Shown here piece by piece: positions 32,856 to 37,696 of a stretch of DNA of 64,000 bases. The position numbers and the translations under genes were made by a program. The notes beneath the pieces are model-generated. The model saw only the letters and a list, made by a program, of their open reading frames with translations. It was not told the DNA's origin and ran no database searches. Source of the DNA: Moraxellaceae bacterium (lineage in GTDB: Bacteria > Pseudomonadota > Gammaproteobacteria > Pseudomonadales > Moraxellaceae); contig JAGLBJ010000001.1 in NCBI GenBank assembly GCA_018260315.1, positions 42,420 to 106,419 of the forward strand. The letters run 5' to 3'. Positions within the stretch are counted from its first letter, which is position 1; the number at the start of each line of letters is the position of its first letter.

Positions 32856-34880
32856 ATGATACGTAAACCGCCTATTATGCCTGCGCTTATAGAATGGCAT
32901 ACGATAACTGATGCCGACCATAAAGTGTATCATTTGCCATTTTCCAAACAATTTAATGATATTTATTATTCTACCGAAAACGGTCTGGCCGAAGCCAGAC
33001 ACTTATTTTTACAAGGCAATCACTTACCACAGCGATTAAGTGCCTTACAGCCTTTTGAACATTTTTGCATTGGTGAACTGGGCTTTGGTACAGGATTAAA
33101 CGTGCTGGCAGTTTGGCATCTGTGGCGACAGGTTCGGCCGTATGCTAATAATTGGCTACATATCGTCACCACTGAAAAACATCCCTTAAACAGAGCAGAT
33201 TTAATGCGCGCCCTCAGCAATTGGCCGGATTTAGCCGCCTTGAGTGAGCAACTGTTGGCACAATATCCGCCTTTAATGGCAGGTTGTCATCGCTTAATAT
33301 TTGCACAAGACAACGTCAGTCTTGATTTATGGCTGGGTGATGCTGCCGATTGTTTAGCTCAGGTGGCAGCGCCGAGGCCGCTTAATGCCTGGTTTTTAGA
33401 TGGTTTTACACCGGTGCATAATCCTGACCTGTGGCAAACGGCAGTTATGCAGCAGGTACAACGTTTATCGGGACCGGGTACAACATTAAGTACATTTAGT
33501 GTAGCGGGCGTAGTCAAACGTGAACTAGTAGCTCATGGATTTAATATTCAAAAGCAAGCGGGCTTTGGCCAAAAGCGGGCCATGTTAACGGCGTACCGGC
33601 CACCAATGAATGATTTAGAACATCAGCCTCAGGCCGACAAGCCATCATCTTCTAATTTCCGGGCTACCACTAAAATAGCGATTATCGGCGCAGGGATTGC
33701 TGGGTTATCAACTGCCTATGCATTAGCGCTTCGAGGTTTTCACGTTGATTTATATGATCAACAATATCCCTTAGCTGGCGCTTCCGGTAATCCAAGGGCG
33801 CTTCTTATTCCTCGTTTAACGTTACCTGAGCTAGCGCACGAACATTTTCATACGCTGGGCTGGCTAAGTACGGTGCGCTGGTGGAAGGCGTGGCAACATA
33901 CAGTTAATGGCACTGAAACGGTGATTGAATTAACATCAACAGCTTACGATGCACCGGGCGGATTAGCTCTAGCAACACCTAAAAATTCGCTGGATTTAAG
34001 CCGTTTGCAATACGACAATAACGAGATTTTACAGCCGCTTAATCCACAGCAAGCCAGTACGCTACTCGGTCAACCGGTTCAATCAGAAGGGGCATATTTT
34101 CCGGCAGCGGCTGTGATTAACCCCTTCGCCTTGGCGCGACAGGTTATGGGCCATGCTGCCATCGCCTTTAGGCAAGCCACAATTACTCGGTTGATTGAAC
34201 AGGCATCAACACAAGGCACAGCTTGGCAATTGGCAGGTATTCAAAACCCAGACACGCCAGTTCATCTAGTAGAAGTATTACCTGAAGTTTATTCCCATGT
34301 GGTGGTCTGTACGGCAGAATTTAACCAAACCTTACTGCCTTTTATTGAACCGTTACAGGCGATACGTGGTCAAGTTTCCTGGTTTAAAATAGATGCTAAA
34401 CTAGCGCAATATTTGCCAAAATTACCATTAACCTATGGCGGGTATTGTTTAAGGTTTGAAGCCTCTAAAGAACACCAACCCATGCCCTATTTTTTATTAG
34501 GCGCGTCTTTTATTCGGCAAAATCCACCATTAGCCAATATAAACACTTCACCTGTGACAGATGAAGAACACAAGCATAATTTTGGATTATTGCAAGAGGC
34601 ATTGCCAGCATGTGCAAGCTGGTTGCCCCCGATTAACGACTGGTTAGGGAGAGCCGCAACACGTGTACAAACCCGGGATTATTTGCCCGTCGTAGGGGAA
34701 ACAGTACTGAAAAACGTTTTTATAGTGACTGCATTGGGCTCAAAAGGCTTTAGTTTTGCACCCTTATGTGCCGAAATCATCAGCGCAGCAGTCACCCAAA
34801 CACCGGCACCCGTATCCCAAAACCTGCTTAAGGCATTGCACCCTAAGCGTTTATATCGAAAAATCAAACAAAATCATTAA
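32856..34880 (+). CDS. mnmC: Bifunctional tRNA (mnm5s2U34) methyltransferase / FAD-dependent cmnm5s2U34 oxidoreductase
   Basis: 674 aa. N-terminal FNDIYYSTENGLAEARHLFLQGNHLPQRL ... DAWFLDGF-type methyltransferase domain. C-terminal FAD domain with KIAIIGAGIAGLSTAYAL. Confidence 0.88.
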   Translation: MIRKPPIMPALIEWHTITDADHKVYHLPFSKQFNDIYYSTENGLAEARHLFLQGNHLPQRLSALQPFEHFCIGELGFGTGLNVLAVWHLWRQVRPYANNWLHIVTTEKHPLNRADLMRALSNWPDLAALSEQLLAQYPPLMAGCHRLIFAQDNVSLDLWLGDAADCLAQVAAPRPLNAWFLDGFTPVHNPDLWQTAVMQQVQRLSGPGTTLSTFSVAGVVKRELVAHGFNIQKQAGFGQKRAMLTAYRPPMNDLEHQPQADKPSSSNFRATTKIAIIGAGIAGLSTAYALALRGFHVDLYDQQYPLAGASGNPRALLIPRLTLPELAHEHFHTLGWLSTVRWWKAWQHTVNGTETVIELTSTAYDAPGGLALATPKNSLDLSRLQYDNNEILQPLNPQQASTLLGQPVQSEGAYFPAAAVINPFALARQVMGHAAIAFRQATITRLIEQASTQGTAWQLAGIQNPDTPVHLVEVLPEVYSHVVVCTAEFNQTLLPFIEPLQAIRGQVSWFKIDAKLAQYLPKLPLTYGGYCLRFEASKEHQPMPYFLLGASFIRQNPPLANINTSPVTDEEHKHNFGLLQEALPACASWLPPINDWLGRAATRVQTRDYLPVVGETVLKNVFIVTALGSKGFSFAPLCAEIISAAVTQTPAPVSQNLLKALHPKRLYRKIKQNH

Positions 34881-35305
34881 TTCACACGACGTAATGCGGT
34901 TTGACTGCTTAAGGTTTCTTGACACTTACGCACACCGTGTAAAATATGCGCTAATGCGGTCCCCGGCGTTGACAACACCATAACAATTAACGTGACATCA
35001 ACCGTTTTAAACTCACGTACGTAAATATGACCATTGTTGGCTTCAATCGTAAGTGACCGGCAGCCTTCCAAACCCGCTTCAAACACCAGTGCGCTACCCA
35101 TAGCCAACATCGAGCTACTTACGGCAGCCAATTTATCGCTGTTGTAATCGGGCACGGCAGACAACGTAAAGCCGTCCATAGTGGCTAACATTGCCGATTT
35201 AATACCCGTTACATCGTCGCGTAACTGGGTCAGCGAACGCCTTGCCTGTACCAAAAACAGGGGTTCAAATTTGTCGGTCACTACTTTATTGGGCATAATT
35301 TTCAT
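34877..35305 (-). CDS. Roadblock/LC7 (MglB/CvnB-like) domain protein
   Basis: 142 aa. VTGIKSAMLATMDGFTLSAV ... KLAAVSSSMLAMGSAL ... SLTIEANNGHIYVREF ... LIVMVLS follows the Robl alpha-beta-alpha pattern. Lies 66 nt downstream of the GTPase gene. Confidence 0.75.
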   Translation of the reverse strand: MKIMPNKVVTDKFEPLFLVQARRSLTQLRDDVTGIKSAMLATMDGFTLSAVPDYNSDKLAAVSSSMLAMGSALVFEAGLEGCRSLTIEANNGHIYVREFKTVDVTLIVMVLSTPGTALAHILHGVRKCQETLSSQTALRRVN

Positions 35306-35371: not shown

Positions 35372-35902
35372 TCAATCTTGCGGTTCTAACAGGGCAATGA
35401 GGACATGCAGCAACATCGAAATATCTTCACGACGGCGCGCATCAACAAAAAATAACGGAATCGATAAATTACGTGCTTTTAACCAGTTAGCATATTGTTC
35501 GGTATCTTGATTTAAGCCTTCGTCAGCATGAGTGACTGCTAACACCAACAACACATTGGGGTCATTTTCAACGTAATAATTGACGTATTTTTCAAGTTGC
35601 GAAATCGGATTTTCAGCCGAATGATCGACGTAAATAATCGTCCCCAATGCGCCAGTCTGTACTGTTTTCCAGACAAATTCAAAGCGTTCTTGCCCGGGCG
35701 TACCGTAAATCATCACTTCAACATCATCACCGAGTTTTACAATGCCGTAGTCAATACCAACCGTCGTCATTGCTTTAGTATGTTGGTCTTGGTCGATATT
35801 CGCCACATCGGTTGAAACCGGTGTACTATCCGAAATCGCGCGAATAGCGGTTGTTTTGCCTGCACCCATTGCACCAGCAAACACAAACTTATAACGCATC
35901 AT
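35372..35902 (-). CDS. Small Ras-like P-loop GTPase of the MglA / CvnD (COG2229) type
   Basis: 176 aa. G1 GAMGAGKTT, switch-I TTVGIDYG, G3 YGTPGQERF (the xGTPGQ variant typical of COG2229), G4 VTHAD. AAGGA Shine-Dalgarno. Confidence 0.8.
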   Translation of the reverse strand: MMRYKFVFAGAMGAGKTTAIRAISDSTPVSTDVANIDQDQHTKAMTTVGIDYGIVKLGDDVEVMIYGTPGQERFEFVWKTVQTGALGTIIYVDHSAENPISQLEKYVNYYVENDPNVLLVLAVTHADEGLNQDTEQYANWLKARNLSIPLFFVDARRREDISMLLHVLIALLEPQD

Positions 35903-36070
35903 GCTAGCATATCCTTAGTGAAACATTATACAGCGCTTAAAAAGCGCTTAATAATAACGTGTTATAAAAAAAGAATGGGTTAAATAACCTACTGCGACAT
36001 CTTTAAAAATTCTATCCAATAGCGCTTTTAGCCTCTTTAAGACCGGCCGTTTAAAATAATCTAGGGCGCA

Positions 36071-37045
36071 TTAAAGTCCCAATTTGGAACGTAACCGTCC
36101 CAACATGCCCTTAAAACCTTGTCCTTGCTGTACTTCCGGGGGCAGCCCTGCATTACGATTATTGAGCTTGACCTGTGCTGCGGTATTATCTGCCGAGGTC
36201 GCCGAACGTGCATAGCCCAACAATTGTAAGGCATGTAACGTTTGGTTAATCGTTGCGCGGTCAATATCCCCAATGGCCAGCAAATCTTGCAGAGAAGAAT
36301 TTTTAACGTGCAAATAACCACAAATACGTAAAATATCACTAATCGGCATGGGTGCAGCCGGTTGCGGCCAACGGTCCAAGGTCCAACGTTGTTCTAAGGC
36401 AGCCGCTTCTCTACCGTCTTCACCGCCCAGTCGCCATGCCAAATCCCATAACCAGACAGACATAGGCATGCTAACTTCGGCAAGAGGCTGCGGTATGGCT
36501 CTTACATCAAACGTGGCGTGTGAAATTTGTCGGCTAATATTGGCATTTAACGGCCAAACCCGATGATTTGTACTGTCAACCCAAGCCAGTGGCTGACCAT
36601 TGGCCGTTAATTGACCCTGTCCGCCTTTTTGCCATAATGCTTGTAAATTTTCGAGAATCTTATCATCTTTGGGAGCCTGATTTTGTCCAGGGACGATACC
36701 GCTCGCAACACGCAAATATTGATATAAATCGGAGGTCGATTGAATGGGCACTGAAATCGAATATTGTTGATTTTCTTTAACGACTTCAAAGGGCTTTGTC
36801 GGGTCGCGACGTACCCACAGGACCCGCACATGGCCTGCTTGCAAAAGTTTATTAATTTGTGGTGAATCCATAAATAAATGGCTGACAATCAACAACTGTT
36901 TTGAAGGGTCTTGACCGGTAACCCACTCTAAGCTTAAGCCGTGTTCGGCGCTTAACATTCTAAAATAACCACGTACTAAGCTTTCATCGGCGTTCGATAA
37001 CCCGACACAAGCAATGCGCAATACTTTACCATCAATCGAAGACAC
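36071..37045 (-). CDS. Orphan ~325-aa protein: receiver-like N-terminus without acidic pocket, Trp-rich middle, DUF742-like HTH segment, C-terminal amphipathic helix
   Basis: Open frame 36071..37060 (TTG at 37060, no Shine-Dalgarno). GTG 37045 follows GGGGGA by 7 nt and is preferred. No ATG occurs before codon 35. No family recognised. Confidence 0.6.
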   Translation of the reverse strand: MSSIDGKVLRIACVGLSNADESLVRGYFRMLSAEHGLSLEWVTGQDPSKQLLIVSHLFMDSPQINKLLQAGHVRVLWVRRDPTKPFEVVKENQQYSISVPIQSTSDLYQYLRVASGIVPGQNQAPKDDKILENLQALWQKGGQGQLTANGQPLAWVDSTNHRVWPLNANISRQISHATFDVRAIPQPLAEVSMPMSVWLWDLAWRLGGEDGREAAALEQRWTLDRWPQPAAPMPISDILRICGYLHVKNSSLQDLLAIGDIDRATINQTLHALQLLGYARSATSADNTAAQVKLNNRNAGLPPEVQQGQGFKGMLGRLRSKLGL

Positions 37046-37284
37046 TGGGTTTTCCCCCAAAAGTCACAAAATAAAAAGCGGCGTTTATAACCAACATTGG
37101 GGTACGCTACATACTTTGAACATAATATCTAACAGCATTTTTACTAAAATTAATAAGCCCGTTAATTTAATATCCAACAGCCATGCATCAAACAGTCATC
37201 ACTTACTTTACAAATAATCGTCAATTTACGAGCGATCGGTCATCTCAATACCGCATGATATCACCATGTCCTTAAGATAACAAA

Positions 37285-37312
37285 ATAACTTGACACCGCA
37301 GCATCAAGTTAT
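37285..37312 (-). terminator. Hairpin downstream of the 118-aa Roadblock gene
   Basis: ataacttga (37285..37293) and tcaagttat (37304..37312) form a perfect 9-bp stem with a 10-nt loop. On the minus strand it is followed by UUUGUU. The stem is AT-rich and therefore weak. Confidence 0.35.
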
Positions 37313-37339: not shown

Positions 37340-37696
37340 TTAAGAAAAGTCTAAGTTGCCTTCATATGATTTTAGACTGTGCCGTGCCATCGCTAAGTTA
37401 GCTTTCTTACGGTCTAATACAACGTAGATAAATAACGCAGGATTACGCTCTAAAGGACGTAACAAGTGATATTGTTTGCCTAAAGTGATTAAAATATCTT
37501 CGATATTATCATTTAAGCCCAAAGAGGCGGCAACGCGACGTTTAGCACGTAACACTTCGGTATTACCCGCAGCGGCTAAATCTAAATCGATGTTGTCACC
37601 ATCCATTGCCAATGCTAAACCACTATCACTATCAACGATTGCAGATGCAATATAACCATCTAAACCTTTTAAATCATCCAAACTTAATTTTGCCAT
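37340..37696 (-). CDS. Roadblock/LC7-like protein (second copy, different subfamily)
   Basis: 118 aa. GAGG Shine-Dalgarno 5 nt before the ATG. LKGLDGYIASAIVDSDSGLALAMDG ... DILITLGKQYHLLRPL ... LFIYVVLD fits the Robl fold pattern. Confidence 0.6.
   Translation of the reverse strand: MAKLSLDDLKGLDGYIASAIVDSDSGLALAMDGDNIDLDLAAAGNTEVLRAKRRVAASLGLNDNIEDILITLGKQYHLLRPLERNPALFIYVVLDRKKANLAMARHSLKSYEGNLDFS

Follow-up and report, generated by a model that had tools for sequence, protein, structure and literature searches.

Domain anatomy and gene linkage of a divergent Group 3 MglA partner protein from a Moraxellaceae bacterium, a candidate membrane-tethered GTPase regulator

The gene analysed here, referred to as X, lies on the minus strand (36071..37045) of a stretch of 64,000 nucleotides (nt) from a Moraxellaceae bacterium (assembly GCA_018260315.1, contig JAGLBJ010000001.1, positions 42,420 to 106,419), hereafter the window, and encodes a protein of 324 amino acids (aa), the partner of a small Ras-like GTPase of the MglA family. 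Judged from its sequence, X is a new, rather divergent member of the computationally defined 'DUF' (domain of unknown function) family of Group 3 MglA systems. It is a multidomain cytoplasmic protein composed of a degenerate receiver, a short linker, a Trp-marked middle domain, a winged helix-turn-helix (wHTH), a variable linker and a cationic amphipathic C-terminal helix. While this domain architecture, the family and the linkage to the GTPase gene are observed, the function of X is one that we infer: with an even chance in our estimate, X would be a membrane-tethered regulator, probably a guanine nucleotide exchange factor (GEF), of the adjacent Group 3 MglA-type GTPase.

The prokaryotic MglA-family GTPases were sorted into five groups by Wuichet and Sogaard-Andersen (2014, Genome Biol Evol; PMC4316618), Group 3 being almost confined to beta- and gamma-proteobacteria and having the composition 'DUF + MglA + one or two MglB'. 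In that study, the Group 3 DUF, which has no Pfam match, was predicted by Phyre2 to begin with a receiver-like region, joined by a variable linker to a C-terminal region containing a wHTH, and the MglA proteins of Groups 2 and 3 were distinguished by a G4 motif deviating from [NT]KxD and a DAR G5 motif (PMC4316618). In the window, X is the second of four genes on one strand, in the order R1 - X - GTPase - R2, where R1 and R2 code for Roadblock/LC7-like proteins. The GTPase (35372..35902, minus strand; 176 aa; Pfam ATP_bind_1, Ras and Roc) displays the hallmarks of a Group 3 MglA, namely an intact P-loop (GAMGAGKT), the catalytic Gln within an intact GTPGQERF, a G4 (THAD) deviating from [NT]KxD and a DAR G5 (VDARR). 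As for X, it shares with the Group 3 DUF the GTPase directly downstream, the Roadblock neighbours, the receiver-like N-domain, the variable linker and a wHTH without a Pfam model. It is also homologous to the X protein of Acinetobacter calcoaceticus, a species listed with A. oleivorans in Table S2 of the 2014 study as Group 3 'DUF>MglA>MglB' with a 186-aa MglA (PMC4316618). In A. calcoaceticus DSM 30006, a 186-aa GTPase, 44% identical to that of the window (E 1e-57), was found, and BLASTP aligned the two X proteins over their full length (E 3e-15), the strain of Table S2 being PHEA-2. The Trp-marked middle domain, the amphipathic C-terminal helix, the loss of the receiver Asp and Lys and the R1 gene are not mentioned in PMC4316618, and the window X differs from the other Group 3 DUF proteins by its unusually short inter-domain linker. 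What goes beyond the 2014 description is the amphipathic tail, the middle domain, the clade-specific receiver decay, the conserved R1 and the link to a characterised GEF.

The sequence-only reading of the window had called X an orphan, and a word-index homology search, in which the query itself was returned and nothing else, gave that impression too. This label has to be withdrawn. An exhaustive HMMER search gave 90 cluster representatives (E ≤1e-3) ranging from 307 to 544 aa, of which the named ones (e.g. from Psychrobacter) are all 'hypothetical protein', a homologue stands beside nearly every related GTPase, and the family has been on record since 2014 (PMC4316618). Around the closest relatives of the GTPase, the same four-gene order was found, with an unannotated protein of 374-411 aa at the position of X. 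The positional counterparts in loci L001 and L004 align with X over the full length, with 35% (E 2e-56) and 31% (E 4e-44) identity, respectively, and that of the Acinetobacter locus L007 in segments only (~27%, E 1e-7). In L001, synteny with the window includes a convergent mnmC-like gene beside R2.

A hidden Markov model (HMM) built from 61 X sequences was run on the open reading frames (ORFs) of 80 loci, which had been retrieved with the GTPase alignment from one genome per species. In nearly all of them a match adjoins the GTPase, directly upstream in most, and Roadblock genes generally accompany the pair. The X-GTPase loci belong to Acinetobacter, Psychrobacter, Moraxella and Cardiobacteriaceae; weaker matches, covering the C-terminal part only, were found in Thiotrichaceae, Thiothrix, Methylococcaceae, Zoogloea, Polaromonas, Craterilacuibacter, Psychromonas and Pseudomonas paralcaligenes. 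No family was assigned to the distant X homologues by Pfam, NCBIfam or PADLOC.

The same 61 sequences provided the alignment from which the features of X were assessed and its structure modelled, residues being numbered on the 324-aa form. Since they are conserved across the homologues, these features are not accidental: all 61 sequences have W41 and W226, while W198 is present in 59 and P229 of the WPxP motif in 56. With this alignment, AlphaFold2 (AF2) returned a model with a mean predicted local distance difference test score (pLDDT) of 82.8 and 155 residues at 90 or above; from the X sequence alone, the pLDDT was 39 and the model unusable. Both the receiver-like or flavodoxin-like N-domain and the wHTH, first proposed from the translation, were seen in the AF2 model.

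The N-terminal domain (residues 8-114; 36704..37024, all features of X being on the minus strand) is flavodoxin/CheY-like. Strands and helices alternate throughout it in the model, with a pLDDT of 84-97 at residues 11-100. The best Foldseek matches in the PDB were to the CheY-like wing domain of the lysine decarboxylases LdcC/LdcI (E 7e-4), with many flavodoxins at E ~1e-2; against viral structures nothing significant was obtained, giant-virus hybrid histidine kinases appearing with E-values that are not significant. The link with receivers passes through the distant relatives, whose N-domains, like the receivers of PF00072, keep in a (beta-alpha)5-like fold an almost invariant Asp where strand 3 ends and a Lys-Pro after strand 5. 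A profile of these distant N-domains matched PDB receivers (YycF 1e-3, Spo0A 2e-3 and many more lower down), and hhalign aligned the Moraxellaceae-type N-domain profile with it at 84% probability (E 7e-6), Ser55 falling on the Asp column. Compared directly with the PDB, the Moraxellaceae-type profile gave weak, out-of-register matches only, and Pfam Response_reg (PF00072) matched neither X (at E ≤1) nor the family members and distant homologues (at E ≤0.1).

The sequence-only reading had further described this domain as a pseudo-receiver, and the column counts agree. Among the 61 sequences, the phospho-acceptor column contains Asn in 40, Ser in nine (Ser55 in the window) and Asp in only four, while the Lys column holds Leu in 47 and Lys in none; the window has Val99-Pro100 in place of Lys-Pro, the Pro being shared by 45 sequences. 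After strand beta1, where the window X reads LSNADE, D20 (35/61) is the sole commonly conserved acid, and its register relative to Asp12/Asp13 of CheY is not fixed. Since Ser55 occupies the Asp column and Val99 the Lys column, the interpretation of the N-domain as a pseudo-receiver, in which phosphorylation at the canonical site would be impossible, is well supported. The N-domain is followed by a short, low-confidence linker (residues 115-126; 36668..36703), at which homologues carry a Pro/Ala/Gln-rich insertion that varies in the alignment from 0 to ~100 residues or more.

The Trp-rich middle noted in the translation turned out to be a conserved domain (residues 127-223; 36377..36667), modelled as a helix, three strands, helices and a strand. 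Its pattern, which includes W198, is also recognisable in the distant relatives; its fold is unassigned, and a profile of the domain found no credible match in the PDB. The WPQP motif (residues 226-229; 36359..36370), with the invariant W226, has the counterpart WPNLTRL in the distant relatives and runs into the wHTH (residues 232-283; 36197..36352). For the latter, helices at 235-247, 252-257 and 263-276 and a strand at 279-281 were modelled, and the X family gave weak matches to many wHTH families, including DprA_WH, TrmB, IclR, MarR and ArsR. The net charge of the recognition helix and wing is not basic, with a family median of 0 and a value of +1 in the window X. The winged helix announced from the translation is thus present in the model; the specific likeness to CvnC/DUF742 that had been attached to it is less secure, the hhalign probability being 60% and many wHTH families matching equally well.

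Next comes a variable Gln/Asn-rich linker (residues 284-309; 36119..36196), with one helix at 284-299 in the model, and then the cationic amphipathic C-terminal helix (residues 310-324, GFKGMLGRLRSKLGL; 36074..36118), which bears a net charge of +4. The last 12-15 residues are conserved superfamily-wide as (K/R)GFLSRLRRKLGL, with RGLFSRLLKRL in the distant relatives. By column, R319 is found in all 61 sequences, G323 in 57, L322 in 56 and K321 in 47. In the AF2 model, the tail forms a helix at 311-321 with a pLDDT of ~64-71, i.e. below that of the folded domains. Its hydrophobic moment (muH) is 0.30-0.46 in the window, with a family median of 0.54, corresponding to the 95th percentile of the members' own proteins; in the distant relatives it reaches 0.68, the 99.7th percentile. 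Alignment, muH and charge together confirm that a C-terminal amphipathic basic helix, previously compared with those of MinD and FtsA, exists and is conserved family-wide. The membrane-targeting sequence of Escherichia coli MinD is KGFLKRLFGG, which the X-family consensus KGFLSRLRRKLGL resembles; in MinD and FtsA, too, a flexible linker leads to a short, cationic and amphipathic helix that ends the protein. The likeness is confined to a short motif: the remaining protein is unrelated, and the X tail is conserved more strictly than amphipathicity requires.

Concerning the exchange-factor part of the proposal, the relevant comparison is with the actinobacterial conservons. In mycobacteria, the DUF742 protein MfpC was shown experimentally to be the GEF of the conservon GTPase MfpB, the Roadblock protein MfpD being described as the GTPase-activating protein (GAP) of MfpB (PMC11343762). 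Ten annotated 'DUF742 domain-containing' proteins encoded on actinomycete plasmids (L089-L098) were taken as the DUF742 set, and all ten genes were found in a canonical conservon made of a sensor kinase, a Roadblock protein, the DUF742 protein and an ATP/GTP-binding protein. The conservon GTPase is 30% identical to that of the window (E 3e-23), both having GTPGQxRF, and the gene order Roadblock-DUF742-GTPase parallels R1-X-GTPase. Like the gene of CvnC/MfpC, that of X is flanked by genes for a Roadblock protein and for an MglA-family GTPase with GTPGQxRF, a deviant G4 and a DAR G5, and in both proteins the wHTH is succeeded by a conserved C-terminal helix. Over the wHTH, hhalign aligned the C-terminal module of X with the DUF742 alignment at 60% probability (E 9e-5), the controls (reversed and 20 column-shuffled) yielding at most 0.4%; in a permissive alignment the C-terminal helices of the two families were collinear, with no score gained. 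Common descent of the X C-terminal module and CvnC is therefore plausible on these profile scores. DUF742 proteins differ from X in being ~120 aa long, in lacking the receiver and the middle domain and in having an RPYxxTGGR-type motif; X systems, for their part, have no CvnA-type histidine kinase. The DUF742 C-terminal helix, LLxxVLxGLRxL, recalls the X tail by its position but is not cationic.

RomR (with RomX) is the GEF complex for MglA in Myxococcus xanthus. RomR departs from X in the Pro-rich nature of its linker, in a C-terminus rich in Glu and in its need for RomX, and it lacks a wHTH and an amphipathic tail. The C-terminal half of X, with its middle domain, wHTH and cationic helix, does not conform to the RomR pattern, a Glu-rich tail being absent. 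The two proteins have in common an N-terminal receiver, a low-complexity linker and partners of the same kind (an MglA GTPase, a Roadblock GAP); RomR is also polar or membrane-proximal, a location to which the proposed tethering of X would correspond. No relationship between the two sequences was seen, no comparison having been aimed at one.

The proposal that X regulates the GTPase, probably as a GEF, rests on its MfpC-like position, on the homology of the partners and on the weak DUF742 profile signal. X would take the place of CvnC/MfpC of the sister actinobacterial conservon; its middle domain, wHTH and tail would bind the neighbouring GTPase, whose GTP form they would promote or stabilise, X acting as exchange factor or activating scaffold. 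The C-terminal helix would keep X at the inner face of the cytoplasmic membrane, and R1 and R2 would form the opposing GAP side. The Moraxellaceae-type receiver would be a constitutive interaction or dimerisation domain, whereas in lineages with the Asp and Lys-Pro, receiver phosphorylation may gate the module and couple the switch to a kinase; PAS-domain genes are found in some operons of these distant lineages. As for the output, control of type IV pili or of cell polarity is the leading guess. The pilT/pilU genes adjoin the module in the two closest relatives, and in those only, so that this adjacency was rejected as a general feature. In Snodgrassella, pilus-type motility and colonisation of the gut both changed when an mglB belonging to a Group 3 system but unlinked to it (an 'orphan') was mutated (PMC11112851). 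A wider extrapolation, which we advance tentatively, would be that the X family consists of single-chain membrane-tethered GEFs combining a RomR-like receiver, a CvnC/MfpC-like wHTH and a MinD-like anchor, the receiver being phosphorylatable in most beta- and gamma-proteobacteria and decayed in the Moraxellaceae-type clade, giving a constitutive membrane-localised switch that possibly positions type IV pili.

Several observations weigh against X being a tethered exchange factor. At the level of the DUF742 comparison, Pfam DUF742 (PF05331) does not match X and matched only one of 40 C-terminal modules, weakly (E 0.061); generic wHTH families match the C-terminal module as well as or better than DUF742; and the DUF742 N-terminal motif (V/L)RP(Y/F)xxTGGRTRP is absent from X and the X family. 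Strict co-transcription of X and the GTPase is not assured, given the 168-nt gap between them and the TATAAT it contains (see below). pilT was absent within +/-4 kb in the window and the other loci, and a literature search found no biochemical or genetic work on the X family. Finally, the hydrophobic moment of the window tail is only moderate, diluted by four Gly, and R319, K321, G323 and the terminal Leu vary less than a membrane anchor alone would demand, so that the tail may hold a docking motif instead.

This last point leads to another explanation of the tail, namely that it docks onto the GTPase or the Roadblock dimer, in the way the MglB C-terminal helix binds MglA allosterically, X then being a soluble scaffold, GEF or effector. 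Owing to the residue-level conservation (R319 and G323 as above, and a terminal L/I/F in nearly all sequences) and to the parallel C-terminal helix of the DUF742 proteins, conserved and collinear, docking is a serious alternative for the tail element alone, and the moderate moment in the window agrees with it. Against this stand the net charge of +4 with basic residues flanking the hydrophobic face, the closeness to the MinD membrane-targeting sequence and the position after a long variable linker, typical of membrane tethers, and the docking peptide is possible and still the less probable choice.

Somewhat further down comes the idea that X is an atypical response-regulator-like transcription factor whose wHTH binds promoters and whose activity is controlled by the GTPase/Roadblock pair. 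A receiver-like domain followed by a wHTH is indeed how DNA-binding response regulators are classically built, a further point that counts against an exchange factor; regulation of transcription was the original published suggestion for Group 3 systems (PMC4316618), and MfpC has also been described as carrying a DNA-binding helix-turn-helix (PMC11343762). The charge of the recognition helix and wing is low for a DNA-binding wing, however, the phosphorylation site has gone from the receiver, the middle domain and cationic helix would be left unexplained by DNA binding, and the positional counterpart DUF742 works as a GEF, which makes this reading unlikely. Hardly better placed is a role as downstream effector, or as a sequestering factor resembling a guanine nucleotide dissociation inhibitor, of the GTPase: the tight gene pairing would be expected of any obligate partner and no GEF-specific feature was identified in X, but the module would otherwise have two candidate GAP subunits and no candidate GEF, and the position of X parallels that of the GEF MfpC. 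That X is a lineage-specific orphan or no real gene at all might be suspected from the solitary word-index hit and from the lack of a Pfam, NCBIfam or PADLOC match; this is refuted by the 90 representatives, the full-length positional orthologues at 35% and 31% identity, the ~80 loci with X beside the GTPase and the confident alignment-based AF2 model, and can practically be set aside.

The X gene itself lies in a minus-strand ORF (36071..37060, stop codon at 36071-36073) that encodes 329 aa from a TTG at 37060 or 324 aa from a GTG at 37045; the ORF and all the peptide stretches quoted from it by the sequence-only reading are present in the translation. A Shine-Dalgarno-like GGGGGA, read from the sequence, is located at 37053..37058, 7 nt 5' of the GTG, and no such sequence was seen in the region 5' of the TTG. 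As this motif precedes the GTG, the public gene call for an identical sequence (P0001) is the 324-aa GTG form and homologues align with X only from about residue 7 onwards, the GTG is most likely the start codon and the TTG less likely, as had been anticipated. X had no match in Pfam, NCBIfam or PADLOC, and phmmer found no significant match to it in the PDB. A defence-system reading of X was dropped, PADLOC support being absent. No RNA libraries with the X gene were found; the runs listed are of unstated type and resemble genome assemblies.

Of the neighbouring genes, R2 (34877..35305, minus strand) codes for a 142-aa Roadblock/LC7 (MglB-like) protein (Pfam Robl_LC7, E 3e-9), and R1 (37340..37696, minus strand) for a divergent 118-aa Roadblock/LC7-like protein. 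The Roadblock matches of R1 are weak and sub-threshold, both in Pfam (E 8e-4, 19.5 bits) and with the PDB Roadblock protein 7yh1 (E 0.086). R1 is absent from the 2014 Acinetobacter neighbourhood strings ('DUF>MglA>MglB>', PMC4316618); from its sequence, it may be an as yet unrecognised second MglB-like subunit. In the Moraxellaceae-type loci (L001-L052), R1 is much better conserved than X, with 52-81% vs. 20-35% identity. In the window GTPase, as in the conservon GTPase compared with it, a Gly replaces the Walker-B Asp of DxxGQ in G3 (GTPGQERF).

The gap between R1 and X measures 279 nt and contains, on the minus strand (37255..37312), a terminator-like hairpin (37312-37285) after R1 followed by a promoter-like site (37283-37255) 5' of X, both being consensus matches alone. 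That between X and the GTPase (35903-36070) is 168 nt long in the window vs. ~10 nt in Acinetobacter loci, and includes a repeated AAGCGCT motif and a perfect TATAAT (35930-35925, minus strand) with a TG immediately before it, elements that could act as a promoter internal to the cluster and drive the GTPase and R2. In view of these consensus elements in the two gaps, a single transcript covering R1-X-GTPase-R2 may be doubtful in the window. An Rfam scan of the four-gene cluster and its intergenic regions gave no match.

Variations on the module were observed among the loci. R1 or R2 was not detected alongside some X-GTPase copies (e.g. L010-L014, L021, L035, L041 and L045), and two paralogous X-GTPase modules per genome were present in A. 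proteolyticus (L011/L027), A. rongchengensis (L022/L035), Acinetobacter sp. ANC 4204 (L032/L049) and one metagenome-assembled genome (MAG; L019/L029). The order is rearranged to GTPase-R2-X-R1, on one strand, in L032, L044 and L051, and to GTPase-X-R1, also on one strand and with R2 not detected, in L077. Two consecutive ORFs take the place of an intact X in a Cardiobacteriaceae MAG (L025:2895-3950) and in Acinetobacter tianfuensis (L033:2947-3985), which could reflect a frameshift, a pseudogene or an assembly error. The distant Group 3 modules of Thiothrix, Methylococcaceae, Methylomarinum and Leucothrix (L080, L081, L065, L087 and L075) carry extra conserved genes, one of ~230-250 aa upstream of X and one of ~215 aa between GTPase and Roadblock, whose copies in L080 and L081 had no Pfam match; downstream, most of these loci have a small PAS-domain protein and a phosphonate-binding-like periplasmic protein. 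Also, a complete X-GTPase-Roadblock module of proteobacterial type was found on a contig assigned to Actinomycetota, in a MAG labelled Acidimicrobiales (L085), and could be due to horizontal transfer or to a binning error.

Only for two bacterial systems, Myxococcus MglA and the actinobacterial conservon, is there a good understanding of small Ras-like GTPases together with their dedicated GAPs and GEFs. Many beta- and gamma-proteobacteria, among them Acinetobacter, Neisseria, Xanthomonas and Stenotrophomonas, possess Group 3 systems, whose partner proteins are uncharacterised. The present analysis supplies an anatomy and a proposed mechanism for one such partner protein, for which Acinetobacter species are genetically tractable hosts. 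If the exchange-factor and membrane-tether ideas are true, they would link the conservon and MglA paradigms and would explain how the GTPase is controlled in space.

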